Shown one piece after another: positions 8,033 to 50,966 of a stretch of 64,000 nucleotides of DNA. Location of the stretch: the NCBI GenBank assembly GCA_016188545.1, contig JACPHO010000001.1:419324-483323 (forward strand). Direction: 5' to 3'. This DNA comes from Candidatus Shapirobacteria bacterium (GTDB taxonomy: Bacteria; Patescibacteriota; Microgenomatia; UBA12405). The notes below the pieces were generated by a model. It searched no databases. It saw nothing but the letters and a program-made list of their open reading frames with translations, and was not told the origin of the DNA. The stretch's first letter is position 1. Every line of letters starts with the position of its first letter. The position numbers were made by a program, and so were the translations under genes.

Positions 8033-9102
8033 TCGAACTAAACAAATTAAAACTAAACCTGGAAAGTATTAAGTTAAAACTTAATTATGCACAGTTAGTC
8101 AGTGAGGCTGAAGAACTTAGAGGCAAGTCTGAAAACCCTGATATTTGGAATGACCCAGCAAAGGCCAGCGAGACAATGCAAAGCCTTAGTTCGAGGGACA
8201 AAACTATTCAAAATATTAAAGACGTAGAAAACAAACTAATTGAAGTTACTGAACTTGTTGATGTGTTTGGCCAGTCAAAGGATGAAAACTTTCAAATAGA
8301 GATAGAAAAATCTCATTCTGACATTCAAAAGCGGATTGAAGAACTAGAGCTAGAGACTTACCTCTGTGGTAAGTACGATAAGAACCAGGCTTTTCTCTCA
8401 GTTCACGCCGGGCAAGGCGGCACTGAGGCCATGGATTGGGCGTCCATGCTTCAAAGAATGTATATGCGTTATTTCGAGCGCAAAGAGTGGAAATACGAAA
8501 TGCTTGATATGAATCCGGGAGATGAAGCAGGGATAAAATCAGCCTATTTTAAAATCACTGTCCCAAATTCCTATGGTTATCTTCGAAACGAAAACGGAGC
8601 TCATCGCTTAGTCAGACTTTCCCCATTCAATGCCGATCAGTTGCGTCAAACATCTTTTGCAAAGGTTGAAGTTACCCCAGTAATCAACAATGCGACCGAA
8701 ATTGATATTCGACCCGAAGACATCGAATTTTCAGCCTTTAGAGCCGGCGGACATGGCGGACAGAATGTCAACAAAGTAAGCACTGCAGTTCGACTTACTC
8801 ACACCCCATCTGGACTAACTGTTTCTTGCCAATCACAGCGTTCACAAGATCAAAATAGGCTAGTAGCTATGGAGATGTTATCTTCTAAGCTCTGGGCAAT
8901 GGAACAAGAAAAACAGTCAAAAGAAAATCAATCAATAAAAGGAGACAATATTATCGCCGGGTGGGGACACCAAATCAGGTCTTATGTTCTTCATCCATAC
9001 AAGATGGTCAAAGACCTAAGAACAAAGCACGAAACCTCCGACACAGTTGGTGTTTTAGACGGAGATCTTGATGAATTTATCAAATCCGAGCTAAAATTGT
9101 AA
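8029..9102 (+). CDS. prfB: Peptide chain release factor 2, uninterrupted (no programmed +1 frameshift)
   Basis: SPF motif ([20 protein letters not shown]) and GGQ motif ([26 protein letters not shown]). The N-terminus is in frame with no CTT-TGA-C slippery site. Confidence 0.9.
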
Positions 9103-10124
9103 TGAAAAAAAACATTTTAATTTTAGTTATATTCGTCTTATCGTTTTTACTTTTTATTTTTTACTTTTTATTTTACAAGATATCGTCGTATACACATACC
9201 CGCATTTCTCATTTTCCCACAACATTAATAAAGTCATACCAGCACCCCACTTTAGCTCCTGGTTTTAACTTTGTTATGCTCGGAGTTGATCCCAGAGACG
9301 ACCAGCTTGAGAAAACCCAAGTTTCAGATAGTATTATTGTCGGCCGCCTCACCTCATCTCGGCAAGTCAAACTTATTTCAATACCTCGTGATTTATGGGT
9401 TTATTCACTTGAAACAAAAGTAAACCAAATTTACCCGCTCTCACAAGATAAGGTTAGTCCAGTTCAGAGCTATCAATATATCGAAGACGAATTCACCAAG
9501 TTAACAGGTCAAAAAATAAGCCGAACTTTGATACTAACTACTGACAACCTTATAGAGCTCACAAAAATAATCGGTGGAGTCGATGTTGTTCAGGAGTCGA
9601 CTTACACGGACTTGTTTTATCCAAATCCTGAATATGTTAAAAATCCCTCGCCCAAAATCCCCATCTACAAAACAGTTATCTTTCCCAAGGGTTTACTCCA
9701 CTTAGACGAGTCCAATATTACTGAGTATGTTCGGTCCCGCAAAGGCCAAAATGAAGAAGGAAGTGGTAGTAGCGACCAGGGAAGAATCCAGCGCCAGCAA
9801 CTATTATTGGAAGCTCTGATATCAAAACTAAAATCTCCTGCGTTTATATCAAGTCCAACCAATGTTCTTACTTTATATAATTTTTGGCATCAGAGTATCC
9901 GCACAAATATTAGTGATAGTGATTTATTTAGCCTTCTACTTTCCGGCAAAAAACAGATACTCGGGCTTACCCTAACCAAAACCAATGTTCCGGTAGGAGA
10001 AAACCCCAAGAAAGATATTCTTTATCACCCTCGGTCATTCATCAACAGGCAGTGGGTTTATATCCCAGTCGACAAAGAATATAAAGGTCTTCAGGAGTAT
10101 ATTTCCGGTTTTCTTAACCAATAA
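9102..10124 (+). CDS. LytR-CpsA-Psr (LCP) family cell-envelope glycopolymer ligase
   Basis: N-terminal TM anchor, then MLGVDPRDD...SDSIIVGRL...ISIPRD, as in LCP domains. Confidence 0.75.
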   Translation: MKKNILILVIFVLSFLLFIFYFLFYKISSYTHTRISHFPTTLIKSYQHPTLAPGFNFVMLGVDPRDDQLEKTQVSDSIIVGRLTSSRQVKLISIPRDLWVYSLETKVNQIYPLSQDKVSPVQSYQYIEDEFTKLTGQKISRTLILTTDNLIELTKIIGGVDVVQESTYTDLFYPNPEYVKNPSPKIPIYKTVIFPKGLLHLDESNITEYVRSRKGQNEEGSGSSDQGRIQRQQLLLEALISKLKSPAFISSPTNVLTLYNFWHQSIRTNISDSDLFSLLLSGKKQILGLTLTKTNVPVGENPKKDILYHPRSFINRQWVYIPVDKEYKGLQEYISGFLNQ

Positions 10125-10151
10125 TTTGCTATACTGGATTATTAGCATTTA

Positions 10152-10646: not shown

Positions 10647-10648
10647 AA

Positions 10649-12225: not shown

Positions 12226-12229
12226 TCAA

Positions 12230-13339
12230 ATGAAACGAACATTACTATGTTTGTTCCTATGTTTCAGTCTATTTTTACCACAAGTTGTAAGGGCAGAAGA
12301 AACAATCGACGAACTAAAAAATACCATTGCCGAACTTGATAAGAAAATATTAGAACTTGGAAAGGCAAAGGATACCTTAGCCAATCAGATAACTCTTCTC
12401 AATTCTCAAGTTTCCCTTACACTTCTAAAAGTCTCACAAACCGAATCTTCAATCAAAATAACTGAGACAGAAATCATTGACCTTGGGGGTAAAATTAGTG
12501 TCCTCGATACTTCCCTGAATCAGCTTTCATCGAAATTTATTGCCGAAATTATTGAGAACTACAAGTTATCAAAAAAATATTCTGGTCTAAGTATCTTTGT
12601 TTCACATAATTTCAACGAATTCTGGCAACAGTACAAATATATCAGCCTGATTCAAAAAAACAGCCAAGACTCACTTATGAACATGGAAACTGTCAGGTTA
12701 AATTACGACACTCAAAAACAACAAAAGCAGAAGAAACAACAAGAATTAGAAGCCTTAAAAGTCAGGCTCGCCGATCAGAAAAATAGTCTTACTAAGCAAA
12801 AACTTACCAAAGCCAACCTTCTTGAAGTAACGAAAAACAACGAAGCAACATATCAAAAACTCAAAGCAGAAGCACAATCTGAACTTGAAGCCCTTCAAAC
12901 CGCAGTCTTTGACGGCAAACGAACCGTTAAAAAAGGCGATCAACTTGGAATCATGGGTAACACAGGCTTTTCATATGGTGCTCACTTGCACTTTGGTTTA
13001 TACAATCTAACTGAAGGCGGACTATCATCATTCTCATACCCAAATGACATCGACGCTTCAGGATTTTTAAATGCTCACAGTTGGCCAATGAAAGATTACA
13101 TTATTACCCAGGGAAGAGGTCACACTAAATACTCCAGTATGTACAGTGATGGTTTTCACCATGGCATAGATATGGCCTCAAACACCAACAAGACACTGTA
13201 TGCAGTTGAAGACGGCGTTGCTTATTTCTTTAGAGATAAATATCCCGGGAGAAGAGTAGGTAACGGTAATCACGTCAAGCTATTTCACGCCGATGGCAAA
13301 ATGACGCTTTATCTACACTTGGATAAGTTCTACAAGTAA
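12230..13339 (+). CDS. Secreted coiled-coil peptidase M23 (PcsB/EnvC-like FtsEX partner); M23 segments appear in permuted order
   Basis: Signal peptide, ~200 aa coiled coil, then KKGDQLGIMGNTGFSYGAHLHFGLY (M23 C-terminal HxH block) before GFHHGIDMA...LFHADGKMTLYLHL (M23 N-terminal HxxxD block). Confidence 0.8.
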   Translation: MKRTLLCLFLCFSLFLPQVVRAEETIDELKNTIAELDKKILELGKAKDTLANQITLLNSQVSLTLLKVSQTESSIKITETEIIDLGGKISVLDTSLNQLSSKFIAEIIENYKLSKKYSGLSIFVSHNFNEFWQQYKYISLIQKNSQDSLMNMETVRLNYDTQKQQKQKKQQELEALKVRLADQKNSLTKQKLTKANLLEVTKNNEATYQKLKAEAQSELEALQTAVFDGKRTVKKGDQLGIMGNTGFSYGAHLHFGLYNLTEGGLSSFSYPNDIDASGFLNAHSWPMKDYIITQGRGHTKYSSMYSDGFHHGIDMASNTNKTLYAVEDGVAYFFRDKYPGRRVGNGNHVKLFHADGKMTLYLHLDKFYK

Positions 13340-13342
13340 CTT

Positions 13343-13957
13343 TTAGTACCCTCTAATCAATTTTCGGAGCACTAGGGCTCCAGAAGTTAGTGACAAGATA
13401 AAGGCACTATTTAGTATCAAACCTGCAGAGCTACCAGTTACTGGCATTGAAGGTTTCTCCACAAAATAGCTAGCATCATCACAATCGCTGACAGTTACGT
13501 TTTTAGCACAAACGTTGTTGGTCAATTTCATTAATTGAGAATAACTAGTTTTTGGTAAGTCCCTAACTATTGCAATTATGTAGTAATTCTTTTTTTCGCC
13601 AGGTTTTAGTACTGGAATAACTGTCTCGATATTTGTTTTATCTGAAGTTACCTTTCCAAAAAAGTATTGTAGTTTCAAATAAGCAGGTAATCTATCTACG
13701 ACATTCAAATCATAAATAGTGCTTGATCCACGATTATCGATAACTATAGAAAACTCGATTTGATCACCCTCTTTAAAGACGTAGTCTGACTTGGAAACAT
13801 TGTCCAACAGGATGTCTTTGTTAGGCAACTTAATTTTTTTATCTACTACGATAATTGGGGCACTAGAATCATTACCATAATATTGCGCCATGACATTAGA
13901 TGGTGTGTAAAATACACCGATGGCTAAGAGTAAAGCGATAATTGTTTTTGTTTTCAT
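13343..13957 (-). CDS. Secreted DUF11-like surface protein with C-terminal sortase sorting signal (MPVTG)
   Basis: Signal peptide. The pattern FSIVIDNRGSSTIYDLNVVDRLPAYL resembles the DUF11 repeat. C-terminal MPVTG is followed by a hydrophobic stretch and an RKLIRGY tail. Confidence 0.55.
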   Translation of the reverse strand: MKTKTIIALLLAIGVFYTPSNVMAQYYGNDSSAPIIVVDKKIKLPNKDILLDNVSKSDYVFKEGDQIEFSIVIDNRGSSTIYDLNVVDRLPAYLKLQYFFGKVTSDKTNIETVIPVLKPGEKKNYYIIAIVRDLPKTSYSQLMKLTNNVCAKNVTVSDCDDASYFVEKPSMPVTGSSAGLILNSAFILSLTSGALVLRKLIRGY

Positions 13958-14064
13958 AATCTGCTCGCAAATGTGTATAGCAAATAATTACAGGATATTA
14001 TATCAAGCTAAATCCATTTGTCAAGTCACTTCTATATATTTCTTTTTGCTATACTCAAAAATAT
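13958..14064. promoter_or_regulatory. Divergent intergenic region likely holding promoters for the DUF11 surface protein (-) and the glycosylation island (+)
   Basis: 107-bp AT-rich spacer between divergent starts. Contains TTGTCA...TATATA and TTGCTA/TATACT-like hexamers. The island's first ATG is only ~8 nt after TATACT. Confidence 0.3.
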
Positions 14065-14793
14065 ATGTCAGATTACATTCTCGAAAGTCTTTCTGTATTT
14101 TTTCCTTGTTACAACGAAGAAAAAAATATTGAATCAACTTTCAACAAAGCCCTGCCAATATTACAAAAAGTAGCTAAAAACTGGGAAATAATTCTAGTTA
14201 ATGATGGTTCAAAAGATAATACCCTCAAGATCCTTCAAAAACTTAAAAAAGCCCATCCCCAGCAAGTTACGATCGTCAACCATACCCAAAACAGGGGATA
14301 CGGAGCTGCCTTCAAATCAGGTGTCTATACCGCTAAATATCCCTGGATTACCTTTACTGACGCTGATGGCCAGTTTGACTTTAATGAAATACATAAACTA
14401 GTTGCCACTCAGAAAAAAACCAATGCTGACCTGGTCATTGGTTTTTATAACGTCAGACAAGTCCCTGCATTCCGTATTTGGGGTTCAGCAGCCTGGCAAC
14501 TAGCCGTATTTATTCTATTTGGCCTAAGAGTCAAAGATATTGACTGTGGATTTAAGCTTTTTCGCAAAGAAGTCATCGACACCATTCCTCATCTGGAAGC
14601 TGAAAGGGGACCATTTATTTCTTCTGAATTCCTTCTAAAAGCCAAAAAGAAGAAATTTAAAATTGTCGAAATAGGTGTCACTCACTTTAGTCGCCAAGCC
14701 GGTAATGGTACTGGAGCCAACTTTGATGTAGTTTTAGCCGGACTAGTAGATCTTCTTCGTCTTTGGTTCAAAGTCAACTTCACCAAATCATAA
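14065..14793 (+). CDS. GT2 polyprenyl-phosphate sugar synthase (DPM1/GtrB/CsbB-like)
   Basis: CYNEE...NDGSKDNT...TDADGQFD...DCGFKLFRKEV motifs of DPM1-like GT2. Immediately upstream of a GT-C membrane protein. Confidence 0.72.
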   Translation: MSDYILESLSVFFPCYNEEKNIESTFNKALPILQKVAKNWEIILVNDGSKDNTLKILQKLKKAHPQQVTIVNHTQNRGYGAAFKSGVYTAKYPWITFTDADGQFDFNEIHKLVATQKKTNADLVIGFYNVRQVPAFRIWGSAAWQLAVFILFGLRVKDIDCGFKLFRKEVIDTIPHLEAERGPFISSEFLLKAKKKKFKIVEIGVTHFSRQAGNGTGANFDVVLAGLVDLLRLWFKVNFTKS

Positions 14794-14794
14794 A

Positions 14795-16234
14795 ATGATA
14801 TTTTTACGTAAAAATTGGCAAATAATCTTAATTATTCTAATAGCCAGTTTTGTTAGATTTTTCCATCTTTACGATTACGCTGAGTTCCTGGGTGACCAAG
14901 GCCGAGACGTAGTCATTGTTAGAGAGTTTCTCAGACACGGTAATCTTTTCTTTATCGGCCCTCAAACTAGTATTGGCAATATGTATTTGGGACCATTTTA
15001 TTACTATTTGTTTGTCGCCCCCGGACTTATTCTTAGCTGGTTCAATCCAATTGGACCTGCCATTGTAGTGGCTATTCTCGGGGTACTTACTGTCTATCTT
15101 GTCTATACTTACTCCTTAGAATGGTTTGACCATAAAACAGCCATGATCGCCAGTCTTATCTTTGCCCTATCGCCAGTAGTAATTAAATATTCCACATTTT
15201 CGTGGAATCCCAATGTCATGCCTCTGTTTTCGCTATTATTCATCCATTATCTTCTAAAATCTCGATATATTTTAGCCACCATCGCCTTCATAATTTGTCT
15301 CAATGCCCACTTTTTAGCGCTTCTACTTCTACCAGTAGGTTTTATCATTGTTGTTTTCAAAAAACCATTTCCTTACCGTGCCCTAATACTGCCATTTGTC
15401 ATTCTTTTGGCTTCGTTTATACCGCAGTTACTTTTTGATTTTAAACACCAAGGTCAAAATATTAATGCTTTTGTTTCCTTTTTTACCAAAAGAGAAACTA
15501 CTATTAACCTAAAACCATATAAAGCCATACCGCTAATGGTGCCTCTTTTTAATCAAGTTACCACTAGGCTAGTTGCCGGAAAAGACGTAATTGTCGGCTA
15601 CTTTATCAGCACTATCTTTGGCTCAACTTTGATATTTATTCTATACCAGCAGTTTAAAAAACGTAAATTCGACCCTCATTTTCTAATGCTTTCCTCCTGG
15701 CTATTGATTGGTCTAGTAGGATTAGCGTTGTACAAACAGCACATCTATGATCATTACTTTGGCTTTTTGTATCCCGCTATCATTATTCTTTTCGCCTACC
15801 TAATCACACGTTTGCCAAAGTTTTTATCAACTATCATCACCATCTTTGTAGTCATTATATCTTTAGTTCAAAACCCGTTACGCTGGTCACCACCGCGTCA
15901 ATTATGGACAACTCAAGAAATTACTAAGCAAATAGTTGCTTCTTCAGAAAATAAACCATTCAACTTCTCCCTATTAGCAAAAATGAACTATGATCCTGGT
16001 TACCGCTATTTCTTTTCCGAATCAAATGCACCAGTCAGATTACTTCAAGATGAAATAACCGAACAACTCTTTGTCGCTTGTGAGCCTTTTCAAATGGACT
16101 GTAACCCCATCAATAACCCTGAGTGGGGGATAGCTGCCTTTGGCTGGGCTAAAATTGACAAAGAGTGGGAAGTGAATGGAATAAAAATATTCCGTTTAGT
16201 CCACAACCAAACAGGTGAAAAAGTAATAAATTAG
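14795..16234 (+). CDS. Polytopic membrane protein, putative GT-C fold glycosyltransferase (PMT_2-like)
   Basis: ~12 predicted TM segments. First loop FLGDQGRD...GNMYLGPFYYYLF is paralogous to the loop in the 16249..17721 protein. Confidence 0.5.
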   Translation: MIFLRKNWQIILIILIASFVRFFHLYDYAEFLGDQGRDVVIVREFLRHGNLFFIGPQTSIGNMYLGPFYYYLFVAPGLILSWFNPIGPAIVVAILGVLTVYLVYTYSLEWFDHKTAMIASLIFALSPVVIKYSTFSWNPNVMPLFSLLFIHYLLKSRYILATIAFIICLNAHFLALLLLPVGFIIVVFKKPFPYRALILPFVILLASFIPQLLFDFKHQGQNINAFVSFFTKRETTINLKPYKAIPLMVPLFNQVTTRLVAGKDVIVGYFISTIFGSTLIFILYQQFKKRKFDPHFLMLSSWLLIGLVGLALYKQHIYDHYFGFLYPAIIILFAYLITRLPKFLSTIITIFVVIISLVQNPLRWSPPRQLWTTQEITKQIVASSENKPFNFSLLAKMNYDPGYRYFFSESNAPVRLLQDEITEQLFVACEPFQMDCNPINNPEWGIAAFGWAKIDKEWEVNGIKIFRLVHNQTGEKVIN

Positions 16235-16248
16235 TCTTTCTCGACTAG

Positions 16249-17721
16249 TTACTCAGTGTATCCAAGCAATGGATCAAGCTGAGCAGAAGTATTTTTACAG
16301 TCCGCTTCGGTTGCCTTATAGTCACCCGCCACTGGCTTCAAAACTCCAAATCTGCCAAAACTCACCGGCTTTTCATAACGACTAAGTTGCCAAGGAATAG
16401 GAATGTTATATACTGGTACACCCGGTGAACCGGGCTTTACAATATCTACCCCGTAGTACCAAAAGAGATATCTAAACCCAACTCCAACCCCAGGATCCGC
16501 AATGAAGTTAACCGCGATACAGTTATAGTTGTTTTTTTCCTTATCTGCTTTTATATATTCAACTACCTGTCTTCTGTATAAATACGATTGATCTTCATCA
16601 GTTTTAGTAACCAGCCAATAGCTATTAATTACCAGATACAGAAATATCACTAGTATCGCTGCGTTTTTTGTAATAACTTTAGCCAAAAATATTGCCATTA
16701 CCGCAATCACTATTGGTACTGTGTTAGTAAAATAATACTCTGAAACTACTCTTTTTGACACAAACTGTGCGACCATTATAAGTCCAATCCATCCCCACAT
16801 TAAGCCAACTTCCTGCCATTTGATATGTTTTTTCCAAGTTAGGTAACCACAAATTGCGATAAACATCAGCCAGTAAACATAGTTGTTACTGTATTTAAGA
16901 TCAAAAACAATTCGTTGTTGGATCTCCCTACCCGAGGCTTCGATCACCTTTATTAACTTCATTTTACCAGTCGGTGCTCCTATATCCTTTTGAGTTGAGG
17001 CAGCCATGCTCCTAACTTGTGACCAATTATGTTTTAGTTCAAATACAAAGAAAGGAGAAATCGTTATCAAAAATATCAAGATACCTCCCCACACATAACG
17101 ACTAATATTTTTATCAAACAAACTTGAAAATTTATTCTTTCCGACAAAAAATGCCAGAATTGGTAAAGGAACAATCGGCAGCAAAGCTATGTGCAACTGC
17201 CAAATGAACCCAACTAAAAATCCATATATTGGAAGCCATTTCAAATTACCTTTTCCTAATTCCATAATTACTCCCCAAAACCAGATCGACCAGGTTAGGG
17301 TGGGCAGTGTTGGTACTGACCATCTATCAAACCTCGCTATTCCAAACGAAAATGCGTATATTGCTGCAGCTATTAGTCCCGCTCTCATACCCCAATTTCT
17401 TTTAATCACCCAGTAGATACTAACTATATTAAAAATAGAAATTAGTGTTATTGGCACAATAGCCGATAGGGGATTCATCCCAAAAAGTCGATAAAATATC
17501 GCCATGACATAGTAATAAAAACTACCTATAAAAACCCCATCCACACTTGTAATTTGCCCAACTAATCTTTGATGACCGTTAACGATAATGTCTTTAGCAA
17601 TCCACGAATATAGATCCTGATCATGAGCAAAAAAGAAAGATCTTTCAAAAAAAAGCCACCTCATTAATAACCCGGCCCCCAACAAGACTACCCAAATTGG
17701 TACTCTGAACCTAGCTTCCAT
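16249..17721 (-). CDS. Polytopic membrane protein, putative GT-C glycosyltransferase (paralog of 14795..16234)
   Basis: FAHDQDL...GVFIGSFYYYVM loop pattern shared with the 14795 protein. Multi-TM. Confidence 0.5.
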   Translation of the reverse strand: MEARFRVPIWVVLLGAGLLMRWLFFERSFFFAHDQDLYSWIAKDIIVNGHQRLVGQITSVDGVFIGSFYYYVMAIFYRLFGMNPLSAIVPITLISIFNIVSIYWVIKRNWGMRAGLIAAAIYAFSFGIARFDRWSVPTLPTLTWSIWFWGVIMELGKGNLKWLPIYGFLVGFIWQLHIALLPIVPLPILAFFVGKNKFSSLFDKNISRYVWGGILIFLITISPFFVFELKHNWSQVRSMAASTQKDIGAPTGKMKLIKVIEASGREIQQRIVFDLKYSNNYVYWLMFIAICGYLTWKKHIKWQEVGLMWGWIGLIMVAQFVSKRVVSEYYFTNTVPIVIAVMAIFLAKVITKNAAILVIFLYLVINSYWLVTKTDEDQSYLYRRQVVEYIKADKEKNNYNCIAVNFIADPGVGVGFRYLFWYYGVDIVKPGSPGVPVYNIPIPWQLSRYEKPVSFGRFGVLKPVAGDYKATEADCKNTSAQLDPLLGYTE

Positions 17722-17751
17722 AAAACGATAATACCACGTATAATCACTCTT

Positions 17752-18513
17752 ATGACTTCAATCAGTATTGTAATGTCCTGTTACAACGAAGAAAATAATC
17801 TCAAGAGAGGTGTTCTTTCCGAATTAAACGATTACATTTCTAGGTCAAATCTAAACTGGGAAGTTGTTATAACTAATGATCTCTCTACTGACAAAAGCTA
17901 CGAATTATTACTTAGTTTTGCCAAAAAAAACAAAAGCTTTCGAATTTTAAACCTTGAAAAAAAAGGCGGCAAACCAGGTGGTATCTGGAATAGCATCCAA
18001 GCCGCCAAATATCCCTACGTTCTCATGACTGATATTGATCAGTCCACCCCAATTAGTGAATTCGATAAGTTTCTTCCATTTATCAAAGACAGCGATATCG
18101 TCATCGGATCTCGAGGACTTCATCGTAATGGCAATTCGTTTTTAAGGAAAATTGGAGGCCCTGTTTTTCTTACACTACGGCGACTAGTCATTCTTCCCAA
18201 CATTATCGATACCCAGTGCGGCTTTAAACTCCTCAAAACCGAAGTAGCCAAAGAACTGTTTCCCCACCTGCAATTTTTTCAGAAAGAAAAAAACCCGACT
18301 GGTTGGAGAGTTTCTGCATTCGACGTTGAGCTATTATTTATGGCTCGCAAATGGGGTCATCCAATCAAAGAAGTTGAAGTTGACTGGCGTAACGAAGATA
18401 CCAGTAATACCAAGGGAGACGATACTTCCCGCTACAAGAAAGAGTCAGTCCAAATGATTAGGGAAATCATTAGGGTCAAGCGTAACGACATCTTGGGCAA
18501 ATATGAAAAATAA
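17752..18513 (+). CDS. GT2 polyprenyl-phosphate sugar synthase (DPM1/GtrB-like)
   Basis: SCYNEENNL...NDLSTDKS...TDIDQSTP...TQCGFKLLKTEV. Confidence 0.72.
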   Translation: MTSISIVMSCYNEENNLKRGVLSELNDYISRSNLNWEVVITNDLSTDKSYELLLSFAKKNKSFRILNLEKKGGKPGGIWNSIQAAKYPYVLMTDIDQSTPISEFDKFLPFIKDSDIVIGSRGLHRNGNSFLRKIGGPVFLTLRRLVILPNIIDTQCGFKLLKTEVAKELFPHLQFFQKEKNPTGWRVSAFDVELLFMARKWGHPIKEVEVDWRNEDTSNTKGDDTSRYKKESVQMIREIIRVKRNDILGKYEK

Positions 18514-19966
18514 ACTAATACCTGAACTGGGGATAGTTCTATTAATCTCCACTCTCTATTTATTCACACGGGTTCAGTCTCTAACCATTTTACCTGTTTT
18601 TGGCGACGAAGCCATCTATCTTCGCTGGTCACAAATTATCAAAAGCGTCGATACCTTACGTTTTGTTCCCGTAACTGACGGCAAACAACCACTTTTCATG
18701 TGGATCACCGTGGCTTTCTTTAAAATATTTTCTGACCCGTTATTCTCAGGACGCTTATTATCTGTTTTTTCCGGACTATTAAACTTACTCAGTCTTTATT
18801 TTATTGGCCGGTTTTTTATATCTCGAAAAGTAGCCATTATCTCTTCGATTGTTTACCTCATATTACCTTTTACATTTTTTTTCGACAGACTTTCTCTTCC
18901 CGACAGCCTTTTGTCGGCCCTGGGTTCACTGTCCTTATTATTTAGTATTTTACTAGCCAAGTATCCTCGGCTTGATCTAGCCATGATCTTAGGAATAATT
19001 CTTGGTTTATCTTGGCTGACTAAGTCACCGGCGATATATTTTATAACTTTGTCAGCCTTCACTTTTATTCTCTACAATCCTAAAAACATTAAAAAAATCT
19101 ACCTACCAGCTGTTTCAGTCGTGTTCTCATTTGTAATCTACAACATTCTCCGACTTGGTCCTCAGTTTTCGCAGATTAATATTAGAAACCGTGACTATGT
19201 TTGGGGAATTTCTGATATAATCTCGCACCCACTCGATCCTTTTATTCCCCACCTTCGAGACTTATTTGTTTTGTATTCACAATATATTTCTATTCCTTTA
19301 TTAATTGTTTCACTACTGGGAATTTTAATTTATCGCCAAAAACTAAATCACAAAATATTTTTCATTCTTTTATCCTGGTGGGTTCTCCCACTTGTAGCCA
19401 ACATGATGTTTGCCAAAGTTTTCACTGGTAGGTACATTCTTTTCACCGTTCCACCTCTAATCATTCTCATGTCCATCGGACTAAGTCAGTTTAAATTGTC
19501 ACTAAAATATACACTCGTCGTTCTTACAGTACTATGTACTCCCGGACTTATGTTTATTTGGAACATGTCAACCAACCCATTCATAGTCAAGCTCTATAGC
19601 ACTGAAAGTGGTTATGTCTCAAGCTGGACATCGGGCTGGGGGATTCAGGAAGCTTCCACTTATCTTATTAGTCGTTCACACAGTGCCAACGTCATTGTTG
19701 GTACCGAAGGCTATTTTGGCACTCTCCCCGACGGACTTCAAATCTACACAAACCAAATACCTCAGCTTACTGTCTTCGGTGTGGGACTAGATCTAACTTC
19801 AGTTCCTGAAAAACTTATTGATGCTCGTAATCACGGAGACGAAGTCTATATGTTATTTAACCGTTCCCGACTAAAACTCACCCCAAGTGATTCATCTCTG
19901 CTCACAAAAGTATCCTCCTATTCCAAGCCGGATGGAGATGAACTACTATTATTAAAGCTAAACTAA
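18503..19966 (+). CDS. ArnT/PMT-family GT-C membrane glycosyltransferase (GT39/GT83-like)
   Basis: First periplasmic loop FGDEAIYLRW has the ArnT/PMT DE signature. Multi-TM N-terminal domain plus a C-terminal soluble region. Confidence 0.6.
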   Translation: MKNKLIPELGIVLLISTLYLFTRVQSLTILPVFGDEAIYLRWSQIIKSVDTLRFVPVTDGKQPLFMWITVAFFKIFSDPLFSGRLLSVFSGLLNLLSLYFIGRFFISRKVAIISSIVYLILPFTFFFDRLSLPDSLLSALGSLSLLFSILLAKYPRLDLAMILGIILGLSWLTKSPAIYFITLSAFTFILYNPKNIKKIYLPAVSVVFSFVIYNILRLGPQFSQINIRNRDYVWGISDIISHPLDPFIPHLRDLFVLYSQYISIPLLIVSLLGILIYRQKLNHKIFFILLSWWVLPLVANMMFAKVFTGRYILFTVPPLIILMSIGLSQFKLSLKYTLVVLTVLCTPGLMFIWNMSTNPFIVKLYSTESGYVSSWTSGWGIQEASTYLISRSHSANVIVGTEGYFGTLPDGLQIYTNQIPQLTVFGVGLDLTSVPEKLIDARNHGDEVYMLFNRSRLKLTPSDSSLLTKVSSYSKPDGDELLLLKLN

Positions 19967-19967
19967 T

Positions 19968-21659
19968 ATGTTCACCCGCCTCAAGCCACTAATAATCCTG
20001 CTAGTTCTAATAATCCCCAGTATATCTTTCTTTTTTAAACCAGGCGTTTATTGGAACATGCACGATGATATGCAGCTTATTCGACAGTTAGAAATGGAAA
20101 AATGCATCCTCGACGGACAAATTCCTTGTCGTTGGACACCTGACCTTGGCTACGGTTACGGATACCCCTTGTTCAACTTCTACCCACCACTCCCATATTT
20201 TGTTGGTGAGGTGTTTCGAGTATTAGGTTTTTCATTTATATCCACTATCAAACTAACCGCCGCTCTCCAATTCATTGTCGCCGCCTTAGGAATGTATTTA
20301 CTTGTCACTTCTATTTTTGGACCCATCTCCGGACTCGTAGCTTCGCTTCTATACAATTACGCACCGTATCACTCTGTAAACGTTTATATAAGAGGAGCAA
20401 TGAACGAAGCCTGGGCAGCAACATTTTTCCCTTTTATCTTCTACTTTGGACGCCTTGCAATCATCAAAAAAAATCTTTTCTCCCACCTTCTCCTAACCCT
20501 TTCCTATAGTCTATTACTCCTATCTCACAACCCTATGGCGCTTACATTCAGTCCGTTTTTGGGTATCTGGCTACTTTACTGGCTTATCAGCAGTTATGGC
20601 TTTACCAAAGAAACTTTTCTTAGGACTTTTACACTCGGCATATCACTTATTTTTTCAGTTTTAATTTCCGGATTCTTCACCTTCCCAGTCCTATTTGAAT
20701 CTAAAATGGTGCAAATAGAATCCATGTTTCAAAACTACTACCACTTCTCAGTCCATTTTGTCTCTTTTTATCAATTATTTATTAGCAATTTTTGGGGCGA
20801 TGGGCCATCGGTTTGGGGGACTACCGATGGAATGTCATTTTCAGTTGGGTACCTCCATTGGGGTATTGCTCTAATTTCCTTACTTCTAGTATTTTTTAAT
20901 TATCTAAAAACTCGTCGCATCACCTGGCTACCAATCATATTATTTATCGCCTCCTTTTTTAGCATATTCTTAGTCCATGAGCGATCCACACCTATTTGGA
21001 GCGTTATAGGTATCATCCAAAAAGTCCAGTTCCCATGGCGTTTTCTAAACATCTCAGCATTTCTACTGTCCCTACTTGCCGGCACTGTCATTTCACTACT
21101 CCCTCAAAAACCACACATTCGACTTTTTAGTTTATTCACCATCACTCTGCTCATATTTGCTTTATATCAGCCATTATTTACACCTGTCACTTCCGGGCCT
21201 ATAAACGATGACCAGAAATTCGCAGGTAAAGCCTGGGTAAATCAAGTTACCGGAGGTATCTACGATTATCTACCCAAAACTGCTCTTACAGCAGCTAAAG
21301 CACCAGCAAAAGAATATGTTGATGAAATCAACCTCCTTCCAGATGAATATACGTTATCTGGTCAAAAGAAAGGTACTGACTGGATGTTTTTTAATACTAG
21401 CCTAAAAAAACCAGCTAAAGTTACCTTACCTGTTCTTTACTTTCCAAACTTTGTTTTACTCGTTGACAACATCACTACAAGCATCAGCCCTGAATCATCC
21501 CTCGGAAGAATTACTTTTGAATTAACTCCCGGAGATCATCAAGTATATCTAAAACTTCATGACACTCCTGTTAGAACTACCTCTAATATTTTATCCTTAT
21601 TTTCCATACTTCTTTTTTCAAGTCTACTGTTCACCACCCTATGGAAATCCAAGAAGTAG
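19968..21659 (+). CDS. Large polytopic membrane protein, YfhO-like/GT-C candidate (paralog of 41777..43360)
   Basis: N-terminal signature MHDDMQLIRQLEMEKCILDGQIPCRWTPDLGYGYGYPLFNFYPPLPYF is shared with the 41777 protein. ~13 TM segments and a C-terminal domain. Confidence 0.5.
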   Translation: MFTRLKPLIILLVLIIPSISFFFKPGVYWNMHDDMQLIRQLEMEKCILDGQIPCRWTPDLGYGYGYPLFNFYPPLPYFVGEVFRVLGFSFISTIKLTAALQFIVAALGMYLLVTSIFGPISGLVASLLYNYAPYHSVNVYIRGAMNEAWAATFFPFIFYFGRLAIIKKNLFSHLLLTLSYSLLLLSHNPMALTFSPFLGIWLLYWLISSYGFTKETFLRTFTLGISLIFSVLISGFFTFPVLFESKMVQIESMFQNYYHFSVHFVSFYQLFISNFWGDGPSVWGTTDGMSFSVGYLHWGIALISLLLVFFNYLKTRRITWLPIILFIASFFSIFLVHERSTPIWSVIGIIQKVQFPWRFLNISAFLLSLLAGTVISLLPQKPHIRLFSLFTITLLIFALYQPLFTPVTSGPINDDQKFAGKAWVNQVTGGIYDYLPKTALTAAKAPAKEYVDEINLLPDEYTLSGQKKGTDWMFFNTSLKKPAKVTLPVLYFPNFVLLVDNITTSISPESSLGRITFELTPGDHQVYLKLHDTPVRTTSNILSLFSILLFSSLLFTTLWKSKK

Positions 21660-23098
21660 AAAATATAAAAATCAAGACGACCATCAGTATCATTTTTTTA
21701 ACTATAAGGAACTTTGGGATCCAGGCAGTTTCCATGCTTGGTTTTTTTATTCTCACCATTCTACTCGGAACTGGAGAAATTGGGTTATTTGCCATAGTCG
21801 CCGAATCAGTTAGTATTCTTGGATATTTTTCCGATGTTGGTTTAGCACCTACTCTAATCCAACAAAAACACCTACCCACCATAAAGCAACTTCGCACCTC
21901 CTTTTTCATCCAGCAGGTCTTGGTCATAATAGCCTTAATAGTTGTTGCGATCATCTACCCTAAAATAAGTCTTTCGCGTTCCTACGGATCAAAAGAAATG
22001 TGGATCACCATATCACTCTGTTTTTCTTTTTTAGCCGCTTCGCTTAAGACAGTCCCCTCAATTCTTCTAGAAAGGGAATTAAACTTTAAATTACTATCAA
22101 CCATCGACATAATTGAAAATCTTGTTTTCTATATTGTCGCAGTCACCTTTGCCTTTATGGGGTTTGGAGGCTATTCATACGCAATAGCAACTTTTTGTCG
22201 GAGTATCTTAGGTTTGATAATTATTTATTACCGTGCCCCTTGGAGTATTGGCATTTATTTTTCTCTCGATACAGCCAAAGAATTATTTAAGTACGGCATA
22301 CCTTTCCAGCTGAACTCCTTTATTGCCATGGCCAAAGACAGGCTTTCAAACCTACTTGTAGCTGGCATTATTGGTCGTGATTCTTTTGGCCTACTAGCCT
22401 GGTCTCAAAAAGGTCCCCGAATTCCTCTTAACTTTATGGATGCTATTATGAAAGTTACCTTCCCCACCTTTGCTAGAATTCAAGACGAGCCAGAACTTCT
22501 TAAAAAATCCCTGTCTCGAAGTATATTCTTTATTGCAGTAGTTGTATTCCCCGCTCTGGCAGGCATATCGGTAATTGCCCCCGATCTAATTAGCATAATT
22601 CCCAAGTATTCCAAATGGGCACCAGCAATTCTTCCTATGTACTTATTTGCCATCAATGCGGCAATTGCGGCCGTTACTACTCCACTTACCAATGCCTTCA
22701 ACGCGGTAGGTAAAATAACAATTACCACTCGACTGATGATAATGTGGACAGTTTTGACTTGGATATTTTTCCCAATTCTTAGTAAACAGTATGGATATAT
22801 TGGTACTGCCACAGCCAACCTAATTGTTGGGTTGAGTTCTTTTATCGTCTGGCTTATCGCCAGAGATATATTTGGTATAAATGTCCTCAAAACAATTATT
22901 CACCCCCTAATTGCCACTCTCCTGATAGTTATCTCGGCGCTAGCTATAGATATGTTAGAAGTTTCTCACTTGAATAGTATATTTATAAAAATATTCATCG
23001 GGACATTTATTTACATCAGCTACCAATATCGATTTACATTTAACGAGATCACTTGGTTTTATAAACAGCTAAAATGGCTAAAAGTCAAAAAATCATAA
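21641..23098 (+). CDS. Wzx-like oligosaccharide flippase (MOP/polysaccharide biosynthesis protein family)
   Basis: 485 aa, ~12-14 TM helices, Polysacc_synt-like N-terminus (LGTGEIGLFAIVAESVSILGYFSDVGLAPTLIQ). Confidence 0.62.
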   Translation: MEIQEVENIKIKTTISIIFLTIRNFGIQAVSMLGFFILTILLGTGEIGLFAIVAESVSILGYFSDVGLAPTLIQQKHLPTIKQLRTSFFIQQVLVIIALIVVAIIYPKISLSRSYGSKEMWITISLCFSFLAASLKTVPSILLERELNFKLLSTIDIIENLVFYIVAVTFAFMGFGGYSYAIATFCRSILGLIIIYYRAPWSIGIYFSLDTAKELFKYGIPFQLNSFIAMAKDRLSNLLVAGIIGRDSFGLLAWSQKGPRIPLNFMDAIMKVTFPTFARIQDEPELLKKSLSRSIFFIAVVVFPALAGISVIAPDLISIIPKYSKWAPAILPMYLFAINAAIAAVTTPLTNAFNAVGKITITTRLMIMWTVLTWIFFPILSKQYGYIGTATANLIVGLSSFIVWLIARDIFGINVLKTIIHPLIATLLIVISALAIDMLEVSHLNSIFIKIFIGTFIYISYQYRFTFNEITWFYKQLKWLKVKKS

Positions 23099-24759
23099 CT
23101 ATTGTACTATTTATTATCTGCGTTATTATCCAGATAATTCCTCTAATTAAAAGTGGACTAACCTACAGTTATGGTATTGGATATTGGGGAGCCATGGGAC
23201 ATGATGGAGTTTGGCACCAAAGTCTAAGCTCACAAATAACTAATCCATTAAACCTTACCTTACCTATGTACCATTCCACTCCTCTTCAGGGATACCATCC
23301 TTTTTATAACATTTTAGTAAACACACTCCATCGCCTTACGTTTCTGCCTATAAGTCTTATAATATTTCAGGTTATTCCAATATTAACTGCAATTACCTTT
23401 TGTATATTAAGCTATAAAATTGGCGTCCTTTTGACTAAAGAAAAACTTGGTGGATATACGTTACTGATACTTAACACCACTGCCAATTCTTTTGGCTGGA
23501 TAGTCTCTGTCCTGAGAAATGGGACTCTTTCTGGAGAAAGTATGTTTTGGGCTATGCAAGCTCCATCCAATCAAATTAACCCACCATATCAACTTTCTCT
23601 AGTCTTAATACTAGCTCTTATCTACATTCTTCTCCGGGCTCTAAAACTGAAAAGACTAACCCTTCCTTCGTCCCTGACGATAGTTCTAATACTGGTCCTC
23701 CTGCCTATTACTAAAGTTTATTCAGCACCTCTCGGATTTGGACTGTTTTTCTTCTACGCCTTTTATAACATTTACCTATTTAAAAATTTCCGACCTCTAG
23801 TCATCCTGATAGTTTCTTTAATTTTTTCAGCGGCACTTTTCTTTAACTACAACCGAACCAGTTTATCTCTACTAGAGTTTCATCCTTTCTGGTTTATCAA
23901 CAGTATGATTGAGTCACCAGATAGACTATACATTCCTCGTCTGGCAAATATGCGCTATACATTAGAGTCATCTGGAAATATCGGACCCAGATTTCTTGCA
24001 CTCCAATCTCTCACTTTTATTATATTTATCATCGGCAATTTCGGCTGGCGTGTCTTAGGGTTTATTCCCCAAAAGAAGACGAGATACCTTAATTGGGTAC
24101 TTAATATTCTCATTCTACTTACCATCCTAATTCCTACATTTTTTATCCAAAAGGGGACTAGTTGGAACACCATTCAATTTATGTATTATGGTCTTTTTCT
24201 AGGTAACATCGGCCTAACTATATTTATACTTTCTCAAAAGAAACCGATTCGCCATACCCTACTTATAGGCATCATCATTTCATCAGCCCTACCATTAATT
24301 GGTTCTCTCCCTCAATATTTGGGTTCTCTGCCACCATCAGCTCTACCAGCTAACGAAGTAAACGCCCTTACATTTTTGTCATCACAGCCAAAAGGTATAG
24401 TTCTAACAGTCCCCTTCGATTCTTTTCAAAAATATAATTTCGATACTACTCCTATACCACTCTATGCTTATGAAACCACCAGCTATGTCTCAGCCTATTC
24501 AAAACATCCAACATTTCTAGAGGATGAAATGAACTTAGGCAATTCCGGAATTGTATATAAACCGTTGTTAGATGCCTCAACTAAATTTTTTGAACAAAAA
24601 AATGTCTTTCAAGATAGGGGATTCCTAGTAAATAATCAAATAGACTATATCTATCTCACCGGCTTGCAAGTAGCTAAATTCCCCTTAAATAGTCAAGAAC
24701 TTTCGATCAAGGAGATCTATCATCAAGGCGATACACTTATCTACAGAGTCCTTAGATGA
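23074..24759 (+). CDS. Polytopic membrane protein with C-terminal extracytoplasmic domain (possible polymerase/GT-C; unknown)
   Basis: 561 aa with many TM segments and a ~150 aa soluble C-terminus. No recognised motif. Confidence 0.4.
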   Translation: MAKSQKIITIVLFIICVIIQIIPLIKSGLTYSYGIGYWGAMGHDGVWHQSLSSQITNPLNLTLPMYHSTPLQGYHPFYNILVNTLHRLTFLPISLIIFQVIPILTAITFCILSYKIGVLLTKEKLGGYTLLILNTTANSFGWIVSVLRNGTLSGESMFWAMQAPSNQINPPYQLSLVLILALIYILLRALKLKRLTLPSSLTIVLILVLLPITKVYSAPLGFGLFFFYAFYNIYLFKNFRPLVILIVSLIFSAALFFNYNRTSLSLLEFHPFWFINSMIESPDRLYIPRLANMRYTLESSGNIGPRFLALQSLTFIIFIIGNFGWRVLGFIPQKKTRYLNWVLNILILLTILIPTFFIQKGTSWNTIQFMYYGLFLGNIGLTIFILSQKKPIRHTLLIGIIISSALPLIGSLPQYLGSLPPSALPANEVNALTFLSSQPKGIVLTVPFDSFQKYNFDTTPIPLYAYETTSYVSAYSKHPTFLEDEMNLGNSGIVYKPLLDASTKFFEQKNVFQDRGFLVNNQIDYIYLTGLQVAKFPLNSQELSIKEIYHQGDTLIYRVLR

Positions 24760-37220: not shown

Positions 37221-37221
37221 C

Positions 37222-40151: not shown

Positions 40152-40182
40152 ATAAAGGATGGTATAAAATGAATATTATCAC

Positions 40183-41775: not shown

Positions 41776-41776
41776 A

Positions 41777-49002: not shown

Positions 49003-50157
49003 ATGAGTAAAATTTTTAGGATCGCTATCGATGTTTCACCTTTAAATGACGGCAACTCCAAAAGGGGGGTGGGTTTTTATACTCGCAACCTGGTTAGCTC
49101 TCTCAAAGAAGAAATTAAATTAAACCCCTTATATAAAAACTTCGAAATTGTTCTAATTGAAAATTGTAAATTCCTGCCTGCCGGCAGGCAGGGTAAAATT
49201 AAAAATTATGACCTGGTTCATTATCCCTATTTTGATCCGTTCTATCTCACTCTCCCCACCAAAAAAGATATCCCTCAAATAATCACCATTCATGACCTAA
49301 TACCCATCCAATTCAAGCAACATTTTCCCTCCGGCATAAGAGGGTTCCTTAAGTGGCAAATTCAAAAACATAAAGCTAAGCAGTCAGATTACATCATTAC
49401 AGTTTCAAATTATTCCAAATATGTCATCGCTGAAAGTCTAGGATTTGCTGCAGATAAAATATACGTGACTTACGAGGGAGCCACCCCTGATTTTAAGAAG
49501 ATCATAGATCACAAAAAGTTATCTCAAATCAAAAAAAAATATAAATTACCTGAAGAGTTTGTTTTTTACACTGGCGATATAAATTGGAATAAAAACATTC
49601 CCTCATTAGTTAAAGCATGCATCGACCTAAACTACCCATTGGTTATCGCCGGTAAACAGGCAATCGATATCGACAATCTCAAACTTGAAAAACCAAGTAT
49701 AGCTAGACCCATGGACTTATTTAGACACTTGTTAGATATTCCCAGTCCTCAGTTAAAACATTTAACAACCCTAAAAAAAATATTTCATAGTCCGCTGGTT
49801 TATAGATTAGGGTTTGTTGATAGTGAAGATTTACCTTTTCTATATAACTTAGCTACAATTTACTGCCAACCTTCATATGCAGAAGGCTTTGGACTTTGCC
49901 CACTGGAAGCTATGCAGTCCGGCACTCCAGTTGTTTACAGTTCTGATACCAGTCTCCCTGAGATCATGGGTGAAGCTGGTATATCATTTAATCCGTATAG
50001 TACTGATGGTCTGATCAGTTCACTCAAAAAACTCTGGATTGACAAAACCTTACAAGACCAACAAATTAAAATGGGTATTAATCGCTCCAAGTTTTTCTCC
50101 TGGAAACAAACAGCCAAGCAAACCTTAGCAGTTTATGACTTAGCTCTCAGTCGATGA
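49003..50157 (+). CDS. Glycosyltransferase family 4 (GT-B)
   Basis: EGFGLCPLEAMQSGTPVV motif. Start taken at the ATG at 49003, just after the upstream stop. Confidence 0.72.
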   Translation: MSKIFRIAIDVSPLNDGNSKRGVGFYTRNLVSSLKEEIKLNPLYKNFEIVLIENCKFLPAGRQGKIKNYDLVHYPYFDPFYLTLPTKKDIPQIITIHDLIPIQFKQHFPSGIRGFLKWQIQKHKAKQSDYIITVSNYSKYVIAESLGFAADKIYVTYEGATPDFKKIIDHKKLSQIKKKYKLPEEFVFYTGDINWNKNIPSLVKACIDLNYPLVIAGKQAIDIDNLKLEKPSIARPMDLFRHLLDIPSPQLKHLTTLKKIFHSPLVYRLGFVDSEDLPFLYNLATIYCQPSYAEGFGLCPLEAMQSGTPVVYSSDTSLPEIMGEAGISFNPYSTDGLISSLKKLWIDKTLQDQQIKMGINRSKFFSWKQTAKQTLAVYDLALSR

Positions 50158-50966
50158 AAAGCCAACTGCATTTTTTATCAGTAATTGTTCCGGTTTATAA
50201 ACAAGAAACTACCATCAGGAAAGACCTAACCACTATTCTCCGGACACTAGAACAGATTCGCTATCCTTTTGAGCTTATCGCTGTTATTGATGGCAAAAGT
50301 ATCGACAACTCATTCAAGATTGCCAGTTCTATCCATCACCCCAACCTAAAAGTCACCGGCTACAACCAGAACCACGGCAAAGGCTATGCTATCCGATATG
50401 GTTGGGCTCATACACACGGAGACTATGTCGCCTTTATCGACTCCGGTATGGAGATCGATCCAAACGGAATTTCTATGCTTCTTGAACACATGGAGTGGTA
50501 TGAAGCAGATATTGTAGTCGGCAGTAAATTTCATCCCGCCTCCCAAATAGCGTATCCATTCCATCGACGAATTATTAGTTTTGGTGCCCACCTAATCTCG
50601 CTTTTTCTTCTCCGCATCAACCTCCACGACACCCAGGCTGGAATCAAAATCTTCAAACAACAAGTGCTCAACAAAATACTCCCCAGGCTTTTAATCAAAA
50701 CTTTTGCCTTCGACCTGGAAGTGTTAGCTGTTTCTAAACATCTGGGTTTTACCCGAATCTACGAAGCACCTATCAAACTAAACTATGATTTTTCCGGAAC
50801 CCATCTTGATGGTTCTTTCCTAAAAACAGTCATGCTTTGTCTCAAAGATGCCCTAGCAGTCTTCTATCGACTATACATTATTCACTACTATGATGACAAA
50901 AACAGACGAAAGTGGGTTTACGACAAAGACTTAGAAATGAGAATCAACACCGGTGAATATGAATAA
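50154..50966 (+). CDS. GT2 polyprenyl-phosphate sugar synthase (DPM1/GtrB-like)
   Basis: LSVIVPVYKQE...VIDGKSIDNS...IDSGMEIDP...TQAGIKIFKQQV...FAFDLEVL. Confidence 0.72.
   Translation: MKSQLHFLSVIVPVYKQETTIRKDLTTILRTLEQIRYPFELIAVIDGKSIDNSFKIASSIHHPNLKVTGYNQNHGKGYAIRYGWAHTHGDYVAFIDSGMEIDPNGISMLLEHMEWYEADIVVGSKFHPASQIAYPFHRRIISFGAHLISLFLLRINLHDTQAGIKIFKQQVLNKILPRLLIKTFAFDLEVLAVSKHLGFTRIYEAPIKLNYDFSGTHLDGSFLKTVMLCLKDALAVFYRLYIIHYYDDKNRRKWVYDKDLEMRINTGEYE

Follow-up and report, generated by a model that had tools for sequence, protein, structure and literature searches.

Two predicted transmembrane glycosylation modules in a cell-envelope glycan locus of Candidatus Shapirobacteria

How does a bacterium of the Candidate Phyla Radiation (CPR, or Patescibacteria) bring sugars to the outer face of its membrane? 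These bacteria are believed to spend their lives attached to host cells, and their surface chemistry is almost uncharted. The question is raised by a 64 kb stretch of the genome of Candidatus Shapirobacteria (Microgenomates), called the window in what follows, to which the genome searches were confined and whose G+C content is about 38% throughout. It contains two short glycosyltransferases of family 2 (GT2), starting at positions 14065 and 17752, each directly beside large membrane proteins of the glycosyltransferase C type (GT-C). We consider it likely that these genes form two multi-component transmembrane glycosylation modules, set inside a large cell-envelope glycan locus.

Genes are designated here by their start position, with (-) for the minus strand. 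The first module begins with GT2-1 (14065..14793, plus strand, 242 amino acids), a DPM1/GtrB/ArnC-like protein with no transmembrane (TM) helix and a predicted polyprenyl-phosphate sugar synthase. It is followed by 14795 (14795..16234, plus strand, 479 amino acids) and, in the opposite orientation, by 16249(-) (16249..17721, minus strand, 490 amino acids). The second module begins with GT2-2 (17752..18513, plus strand, 253 amino acids), a TM-less GtrB/DPMS-like protein and the second predicted synthase, followed on the same strand by 18503 (18503..19966, 487 amino acids), 19968 (19968..21659, 563 amino acids) and a flippase of the MOP family, Wzx-type (21641..23098, 485 amino acids). The genes are tightly packed: gaps of 2 nt separate 14065 from 14795 and 18503 from 19968, and overlaps of 11 nt, 19 nt and 25 nt join 17752 to 18503, 19968 to 21641, and 21641 to the next gene, 23074. 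The coordinates of the module genes in the open reading frame (ORF) map agree exactly with those of a preliminary description of this DNA, the claims of which are taken up below.

The first step is to establish what kind of enzymes the short GT2 proteins are. Pfam scans, which took in ORFs of at least 120 amino acids at a reporting threshold of E ≤ 0.01, assign the family Glycos_transf_2 (PF00535) to GT2-1 (6e-33), to GT2-2 (1e-21) and to a third protein, the divergent DPM1-like GT2-3 (50154..50966, plus strand, 270 amino acids; 2e-22), which is not adjacent to a GT-C gene. A simple hydropathy scan, used for all counts of TM helices, predicts none in any of the three. They are mutual best paralogs in the window, with 23-29% identity over almost their full length, and they are distinct from its nine other GT2 genes. 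The top relatives of GT2-1 among PDB entries, as found by phmmer, are ArnC (9bhc, 1.7e-15, residues 7-215), GtrB (5ekp, 7e-15) and PfDPMS (5mlz, 5e-13), and the match covers the entire catalytic domain, including the acceptor-loop region. Those of GT2-2 are GtrB (4e-9) and PfDPMS (8e-8); those of GT2-3 are PfDPMS (1e-9), then ArnC and GtrB. In NCBIfam, most of the catalytic domain is covered by matches to ArnC, the dolichyl-phosphate hexose transferase, PpgS and AglJ, with PgfS covering about two thirds of it, and matches to the PgaC type, a processive synthase, reach the N-terminal half only.

The motifs of the three proteins point the same way for two of them. GT2-1 carries TDADGQFD and DIDCGFKL, GT2-2 carries TDIDQSTP and DTQCGFKL, and GT2-3 carries IDSGMEID and DTQAGIKI. 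A common signature had been attributed to all three; it stands for GT2-1 and GT2-2 and is loose at best for GT2-3, in which the second Asp of the DxD motif is absent. Among 36 relatives of GT2-1, the invariant residues include E18, D47, D99, D101, Q103, R131, D158, D160-CGFK, H207 and R210, and they align with E12, 89-DADLQ-93 and the A-loop Arg of PfDPMS, and with D94, D96, D157 and R200 of GtrB. The roles of these positions are known from the solved enzymes: in PfDPMS, which reads 89-DADLQH-94, the metal is bound by D91 and Q93, the acceptor phosphate by R117, R131 and S135, and the site is completed by R202 and K208 of the A-loop together with E12; in GtrB, the key residues are D94, D96, R122, D157 and R200, and the protein has two amphipathic juxtamembrane helices. 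The DADxQ form of the DXD motif is present in GT2-1 (D99-A-D101-G-Q103); GT2-2 reads D-I-D-Q, with the Gln shifted by one, and GT2-3 fails the motif, with D-S-G-M-E instead. GT2-2 retains both Arg of the motif GSRxxxR, aligned to R122 and R125 of GtrB. GT2-3 has a Lys at the position of GtrB Arg122 and no clear loop Arg; since it lacks both DADxQ and the first Arg, of the three it is the one assigned with the least certainty.

The lack of a membrane anchor has counterparts among known enzymes: GtrB, ArnC and PfDPMS carry a TM anchor in the same chain, and one is absent from human DPM1, GacI, the catalytic domain of Ppm1, and PpgS. GT2-1 has a predicted C-terminal amphipathic helix (residues 220-237, hydrophobic moment 0.50), after which the chain ends, and what appears to be a hydrophobic stretch at residues 137-154. 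Judging from their sequences, the three proteins most likely belong among the polyprenyl-phosphate glycosyltransferases, and would load a sugar onto a membrane lipid. This agrees with the preliminary description, which had placed them in that class; their best solved relatives are indeed ArnC, GtrB and PfDPMS. It had named processive synthases as the alternative, and these can be rejected, the GT2 proteins being short and devoid of TM helices.

We now turn to the neighbours of the GT2 genes, each of which has at least 5 to 10 TM helices. Sequence and profile searches of the families of 14795 and 19968 against PDB sequences returned no matches, and it was thus necessary to compare folds. The protein 14795 itself has no Pfam match; most of its orthologs (53-68% identical) match PMT_2, and several are annotated as GT39 or ArnT-like. 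Its AlphaFold2 model, built from 49 sequences, has a pLDDT of 88.5 and a pTM of 0.89, and its significant Foldseek matches in PDB are all GT-C structures, the best being ArnT (5f15, E 9e-7, TM-score 0.61), followed by ALG12, AglB, ALG9, STT3, PMT, AftA and Emb. Its paralog 16249(-) matches PMT_2 in Pfam (3.9e-10), and hhalign relates it to the family of 14795 with a probability of 98.6% (E 6e-16, 374 columns). In the second module, 18503 matches PMT_2 (1.2e-14) and, weakly, the sequence of ArnT (5ezm, E 0.006). The only Pfam family found in 19968 at E ≤ 0.01 is PTPS_related (PF10131, 7e-8). Its model has a pLDDT of 86.2 and a pTM of 0.90, and its significant Foldseek matches in PDB are all GT-C enzymes (EmbB, STT3, PglB, Pmt4, AftA, AftD and ArnT, with TM-scores of 0.33-0.46); the model also predicts a C-terminal beta-sandwich followed by a final TM helix.

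All four proteins, 14795, 16249(-), 18503 and 19968, are assigned to the GT-C enzymes on the strength of Pfam, hhalign or AlphaFold2/Foldseek. Each one carries acidic residues just after its first TM helix, in the motifs GDQGRD (14795, with D34 and D38 invariant in 49 sequences), HDQD (16249(-)), GDEA (18503) and HDDM (19968, with D33 and D34 invariant in 50 sequences); placed in the first extracytoplasmic loop, they would be the conserved catalytic-type residues of GT-C enzymes. The absence of such residues had been put forward as a ground for doubting the assignment, and they are present in all four. One detail does change: 19968 had been called YfhO-like, and this is rejected, as Pfam gives PTPS_related and its orthologs carry PF10131, PF13231 (PMT_2) or both, never the YfhO family PF09586. 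It is still a GT-C enzyme by fold. Its paralog in the window is 41669 (36% identity, E 5e-102).

Are the modules a peculiarity of this genome? In a scan of one genome per GTDB species, close relatives of GT2-1 are found in at least 454 species, the best 80 of them being 56-71% identical, and the loci that bear them come from Shapirobacteria, Woesebacteria and other Microgenomates records. Gene orders were counted in 84 related loci. GT2-1 is directly followed by a 14795-like GT-C gene in 76 of 78 loci, and GT2-2 by an 18503-like one in 61 of 64, so that the direct pairing noticed in the window is a general one; next comes a 19968-like gene in 41 of 43 loci, and then the MOP flippase in 29 of 31. 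Such regularity goes far beyond what chance would produce. Between the two GT2 genes, the count of GT-C genes is not fixed: 36 loci have a single one, 21 have two, 12 have three and 1 has five. Orthologs of 16249(-) lie on the minus strand in 13 of the 84 listed loci (for example L003, L013, L017 and L019).

Four loci found by homology share the order BipA ... RF1-LCP-(small protein)-FtsE-FtsX-M23-DUF11(-)-GT2-GT-C-...-GT2-GT-C-GT-C-MOP, where LCP stands for LytR-CpsA-Psr. In the window, the corresponding upstream string (8029-13339, plus strand) comprises RF1, the LCP gene, a small Thr-rich membrane protein (10152), FtsE, FtsX and an M23 peptidase, and it is kept just upstream in relatives; the modules thus adjoin genes that control cell division and wall hydrolases. 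Few genes of the neighbourhood are as conserved as GT2-1, whose range of identities is the narrowest (56-71%, similar to FtsX with 48-78%), and the ranges of the LCP protein (34-51%) and of the GT-C proteins (29-68%) lie generally below it. The operon of donor synthase and GT-C genes beside the LCP-FtsEX-M23 genes can be counted among the conserved core features of Microgenomates. Among the records of the related loci, L006, L010, L014, L017 and about 30 others are titled "uncultured Gammaproteobacteria bacterium", and one "Nevskiaceae", and carry a Microgenomates-type locus in the same order; these titles of metagenome-assembled genomes look like mislabels.

From these families, folds, residues and gene orders we infer enzymatic activities, a flippase, the sharing of donors, and the kind of sugar and acceptor involved, as follows. 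The TM-less proteins GT2-1 and GT2-2 would sit on the inner face of the membrane, held there by amphipathic helices and possibly by a partner protein, and each would load polyprenyl phosphate with a single sugar drawn from a nucleotide sugar. The lipid-monophosphate sugar would then cross with the help of a flippase: the neighbouring MOP/Wzx-type protein, in the role proposed for GacK, or another one. On the outer face, 14795, 16249(-), 18503 and 19968 would pass the sugar to a wall glycopolymer, a lipoglycan or a surface protein. Each donor would probably be shared by several GT-C enzymes, as is mycobacterial polyprenyl-phosphate mannose, and the acceptor backbone would probably be made in the cytoplasm by the Leloir glycosyltransferases encoded downstream, then exported. 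Its attachment to the wall would probably fall to the LCP protein (9102..10124, plus strand; Pfam LytR_cpsA_psr, 1e-17), the likely ligase of the finished glycopolymer.

The preliminary description had gone further, to the view that the greater part of the glycan is assembled one sugar at a time outside the cytoplasm. This does not follow from the gene content: the window also holds 13 cytoplasmic Leloir glycosyltransferases, the MOP flippase and the LCP ligase. Nine of the 13 are GT2 proteins by Pfam (24756, 25688, 26623, 28576, 33073, 48084, 50953, 55643 and 61964(-)), and four are GT4 proteins (27368, 48982, 56674 and 58432). Such a set fits a lipid-linked precursor or backbone made inside, and extended or decorated outside.

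How would the lipid-linked sugar cross the membrane? A small flippase of the GtrA or GtcA type was to be expected from the systems with which the locus had been compared. We scanned for it among ORFs of 60-220 amino acids with at least three hydrophobic helices. GacJ-size proteins (113 amino acids) fall below the limit of the Pfam scans, so that the negative for GacJ rests on these hydropathy scans. The sole ORF of the window that passes, 11077-11403 (-), lies antisense within the FtsE gene and was judged spurious, and no conserved small polytopic ORF recurs among the 84 related loci. The only candidate for a third component in cis is the MOP/Wzx-type protein 21641, with a Pfam match to Polysacc_synt_3 (MOP/Wzx family) at 2.7e-45 and NCBIfam matches to the MOP flippase family, TuaB and the O-glycosylation Wzx, all below cut-off. 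There are precedents for a MOP-type flippase acting on a lipid-monophosphate sugar: GacK, for which this is proposed, in GacI/J/K/L, and the MATE transporter of the GT136 systems.

Several points weigh against the two-module proposal. Hydropathy scans of small ORFs found no GtrA/GtcA-like or GacJ/DUF2304-like gene, either in the window or across the 84 related loci, and without a small membrane partner in cis the recruitment of a soluble GT2 protein to the membrane and the flipping of the lipid-linked sugar would need another explanation; 21641 could equally be a classical Wzx for a lipid-diphosphate oligosaccharide. The amphipathic helices of the GT2 proteins are read from sequence alone. GT2-1 has a Tyr (Tyr128) where R122 of GtrB and R117 of PfDPMS bind the acceptor phosphate, and keeps the invariant R131 and the loop residues H207 and R210. 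Every NCBIfam score of the GT2 proteins is far under its curated cut-off, from which it follows that they are not orthologs of any characterised or named enzyme; in the case of ArnC, orthology is rejected with 75 bits against a cut-off of 529. Finally, Pfam finds no family of initiating phosphoglycosyltransferases and no nucleotide-sugar genes among the scanned ORFs of the window.

It is natural to ask which known system comes closest. The comparison made in the preliminary description, with ArnC/ArnT, GtrA/GtrB/GtrC and CsbB/GtcA/YfhO, is sound in its logic of a donor synthase plus a GT-C enzyme: in those systems and in ArnC/ArnE-F/ArnT, a GT2 enzyme loads polyprenyl phosphate inside and a GT-C enzyme transfers the sugar outside, and among solved structures the GT2 proteins come nearest to ArnC and GtrB, and the fold of 14795 nearest to ArnT. 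However, GtrB, CsbB and ArnC have two C-terminal TM helices where the present proteins have none, no GtrA/GtcA-type flippase was found here in cis, and 19968 is of the PTPS_related family, not YfhO. Closer analogues are streptococcal GacI/J/K/L and mycobacterial Ppm1.

The GacI/J/K/L system combines a soluble GT2 protein (GacI), its small partner GacJ, a Wzx-type flippase (GacK) and a PMT_2 GT-C enzyme (GacL). The window likewise has a TM-less cytoplasmic GT2 protein, a Wzx-type (MOP) flippase and a PMT_2 GT-C enzyme in the same cluster, in a conserved order, as well as an LCP ligase presumed to attach the polymer. The two systems differ in that no GacJ/DUF2304-like partner was found in the window or the 84 loci; in that each GT2 gene here is followed by at least two GT-C genes instead of one, with a PTPS_related protein among them; and in that there is no orthology, the curated scores being below cut-off, and the host is a CPR bacterium rather than a Firmicute. 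In mycobacteria and corynebacteria, the polyprenyl-phosphate mannose made by Ppm1 feeds many GT-C enzymes (PimE, MptA, MptB, MptC and Pmt), and PpgS, Rv3632 and Rv3779 belong in the same comparison. There too the catalytic GT2 can be a separate TM-less polypeptide, and one lipid donor serves many GT-C enzymes that extend and branch a glycan outside. The window has three donor-type GT2 genes for 12 assigned GT-C genes and four candidates; if the proposed mechanism is right, each donor must serve several GT-C enzymes. In contrast, most of the mycobacterial GT-C genes lie scattered and the partner of Ppm1 is the membrane protein Ppm2, while here the GT2 gene is translationally coupled to a GT-C gene and no Ppm2-like gene was seen in the window. 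A last comparison is with the GT136 pentofuranose systems of Citrobacter youngae O antigens, in which a transporter of the MOP superfamily (MATE) replaces GtrA for a polyprenyl-phosphate sugar used by a GT-C enzyme after polymerisation; the donor synthase is, however, a polyprenyl phosphoribose synthase that uses phosphoribosyl pyrophosphate, not a GT2 enzyme, and the GT-C enzyme belongs to family GT136. By analogy, the closest known system would thus be GacI/J/K/L in composition, and Ppm1 with its multiple GT-C enzymes in logic.

Could the acceptor be a protein instead of a glycopolymer? The GT-C enzymes would then transfer sugars to Ser or Thr of secreted or wall-anchored proteins, such as the DUF11 protein that adjoins GT2-1, pili or a surface layer. 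Actinobacterial Ppm1/Pmt and the streptococcal glycosylation of Ser/Thr-rich disordered regions are precedents, and streptococcal protein glycosylation by a GtrB-type GT2 enzyme with a GT-C enzyme is documented (PMC12041528). The GT-C proteins do match Pfam families of protein mannosyltransferases (PMT_2/PMT), many with the D-E motif typical of these enzymes. Candidate acceptors are also at hand: a DUF11/CLIPPER protein with a signal peptide and an MPVTG tail adjoins GT2-1 in nearly all loci, and a small membrane-anchored protein (10152-10646) has a short Thr-rich stretch. However, the DUF11 protein has no long Ser/Thr-rich region, 14795 is structurally most like the lipid A transferase ArnT and resembles PMT less closely and only in part, and the PMT_2 members GacL, CsdD and GtsC work on polysaccharides. 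The LCP ligase, the MOP flippase and the 13 Leloir glycosyltransferases are, moreover, what a wall polysaccharide cluster typically contains. We therefore regard protein O-glycosylation as unlikely.

It is more doubtful still that the short GT2 proteins are ordinary cytoplasmic Leloir enzymes acting on a lipid-diphosphate oligosaccharide or on a small phosphorylated acceptor, with GT-C enzymes that use another donor, such as an exported lipid-diphosphate glycan, as polymerases, ligases or oligosaccharyltransferases, 21641 being a classical Wzx and 23074 a Wzy-like polymerase. The missing TM anchors would agree with this, as would the NCBIfam scores below cut-off, with weak N-terminal matches that include the soluble glucosyl-3-phosphoglycerate synthase, the lack of the first acceptor-phosphate Arg in GT2-1 and of a full DxD in GT2-3, the resemblance of the GT-C models to STT3, PglB and AglB, which use lipid-diphosphate oligosaccharides, and the succession of a MOP flippase and a conserved polytopic protein, which recalls a Wzx/Wzy pair. 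Yet the closest solved relatives over the whole catalytic domain are exclusively polyprenyl-phosphate transferases, the GT2-1 family keeps without variation the DADxQ and A-loop residues of that subfamily, TM-less polyprenyl-phosphate sugar synthases are known (GacI, the catalytic domain of Ppm1, and PpgS), and a GT2 gene followed almost universally by a GT-C gene, across coupled junctions, is what marks a donor and transferase pair.

Returning to the two glycosylation modules, a bolder version of them can be formulated, of which we are sceptical: much of the envelope glycan of Microgenomates would be polymerised and branched outside by a large set of rapidly diversifying GT-C enzymes, 12-16 of them in the window, fed by only two or three soluble synthases, with the MOP protein flipping lipid-monophosphate sugars and 23074 representing a new family of extracytoplasmic transferases or polymerases. 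If true, this would be a convergent, mycobacterium-like strategy in a bacterium with an ultra-small genome.

The gene 23074 (23074..24759, plus strand, 561 amino acids) encodes a conserved polytopic membrane protein with about 8 TM helices and no family. It has no Pfam match even at E ≤ 5, its family shows no similarity to PDB entries in a profile search, and hhalign comparisons of this family with the GT-C families of 14795 and 19968 are insignificant. It has 857 relatives in the representative library, many with an extra N-terminal secreted domain, and a 23074-like gene follows the MOP flippase in many related loci; in P0409 (1639 amino acids), a MOP flippase is fused to this secreted domain and a 23074-like domain. 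The motif GHDGxWH follows its first TM helix, with D44 invariant. The protein may be a Wzy-like polymerase or a member of a new GT-C-like family. As a conserved family of membrane proteins physically linked to MOP flippases, it is the most open item of the locus.

What the modules add to present knowledge is best judged against the literature, in which our search, within the library available to it, found no paper linking Patescibacteria or Shapirobacteria with GT-C glycosyltransferases; papers on CPR genomes contain only passing remarks on multiple copies of "dolichol-phosphate mannosyltransferase". The genes described here are concrete candidates for the building of envelope glycans in Microgenomates. 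The mechanism has been well established in Firmicutes, Actinobacteria and Proteobacteria, so that the finding adds to a kind already known; it is noteworthy mainly as a conserved core operon of an uncultured and poorly understood lineage, with machinery familiar elsewhere and, as far as our search shows, not yet reported for this group.

The wider locus is rich in the same kinds of genes. Twelve GT-C genes were assigned in the window (14795, 16249(-), 18503, 19968, 29448, 33861(-), 37222(-), 40183, 41669, 43344, 44872 and 46490), and four further polytopic proteins with no family are candidates (23074, 30920, 36000(-) and 38871(-)), the last three having no Pfam match at E ≤ 5. Seven of the twelve are paralogs of the PMT_2 type, located in 29448-30920 (plus strand) and 33861-48094: 29448, 33861(-), 37222(-), 40183, 43344, 44872 and 46490. 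Their pairwise BLASTP identities are 22-34%, all have an xDE motif after the first TM helix, and four stand in tandem, interrupted by 41669, the paralog of 19968. For a genome that is probably smaller than 1 Mb, this expansion is unusually dense. The listed TTG start of 41669 (41669-43360, plus strand) adds an N-terminal extension of 36 residues and an overlap of 107 nt with the upstream gene; comparison with the sequence of 19968 suggests that the true start is the Met at about 41777, right after the stop of 40183-41775. Among the candidates, 30920 (30920-33076, plus strand) has a weak profile similarity to the 19968 family, only suggestive at an hhalign probability of 59%. The gene 36000-37220 (minus strand) carries HPD and HYPP motifs, which we take to be reminiscent of GT87/PIG-type mannosyltransferases, and 38871-40151 (minus strand) is polytopic.

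The DUF11/CLIPPER surface protein (13343-13957, minus strand) has a signal peptide and a C-terminus that resembles a sorting signal, with MPVTG, a hydrophobic tail and RKLIRGY; it may be anchored to the wall or serve as an acceptor of glycosylation. Its gene is divergent from GT2-1 in nearly all relatives, and its promoter (13997-14024, minus strand) is a perfect TTGACA-16-TATAAT consensus with a TG extension. Apart from this promoter, a scan for promoters and terminators between 13300 and 25000 is uninformative on operon boundaries, as its site counts (33 against 35.1 expected from shuffled sequence, and 7 against 7.1) show no excess.

The end of the glycan locus contains four radical S-adenosylmethionine (SAM) enzymes, within 51962-55671 (plus strand), at 59711-61159 (minus strand) and at 62821-63966 (minus strand). 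Three of the four have a B12-binding domain, and 62821(-) has the radical SAM domain only. SAM methyltransferases, of the FkbM type and others, are found at 53385-54182 (plus strand), 57789-58412 (minus strand) and 61162-62022 (minus strand), interleaved with the radical SAM and the GT2 and GT4 genes. Such a cluster hints that the sugars are modified in unusual ways, for instance by C-methylation.

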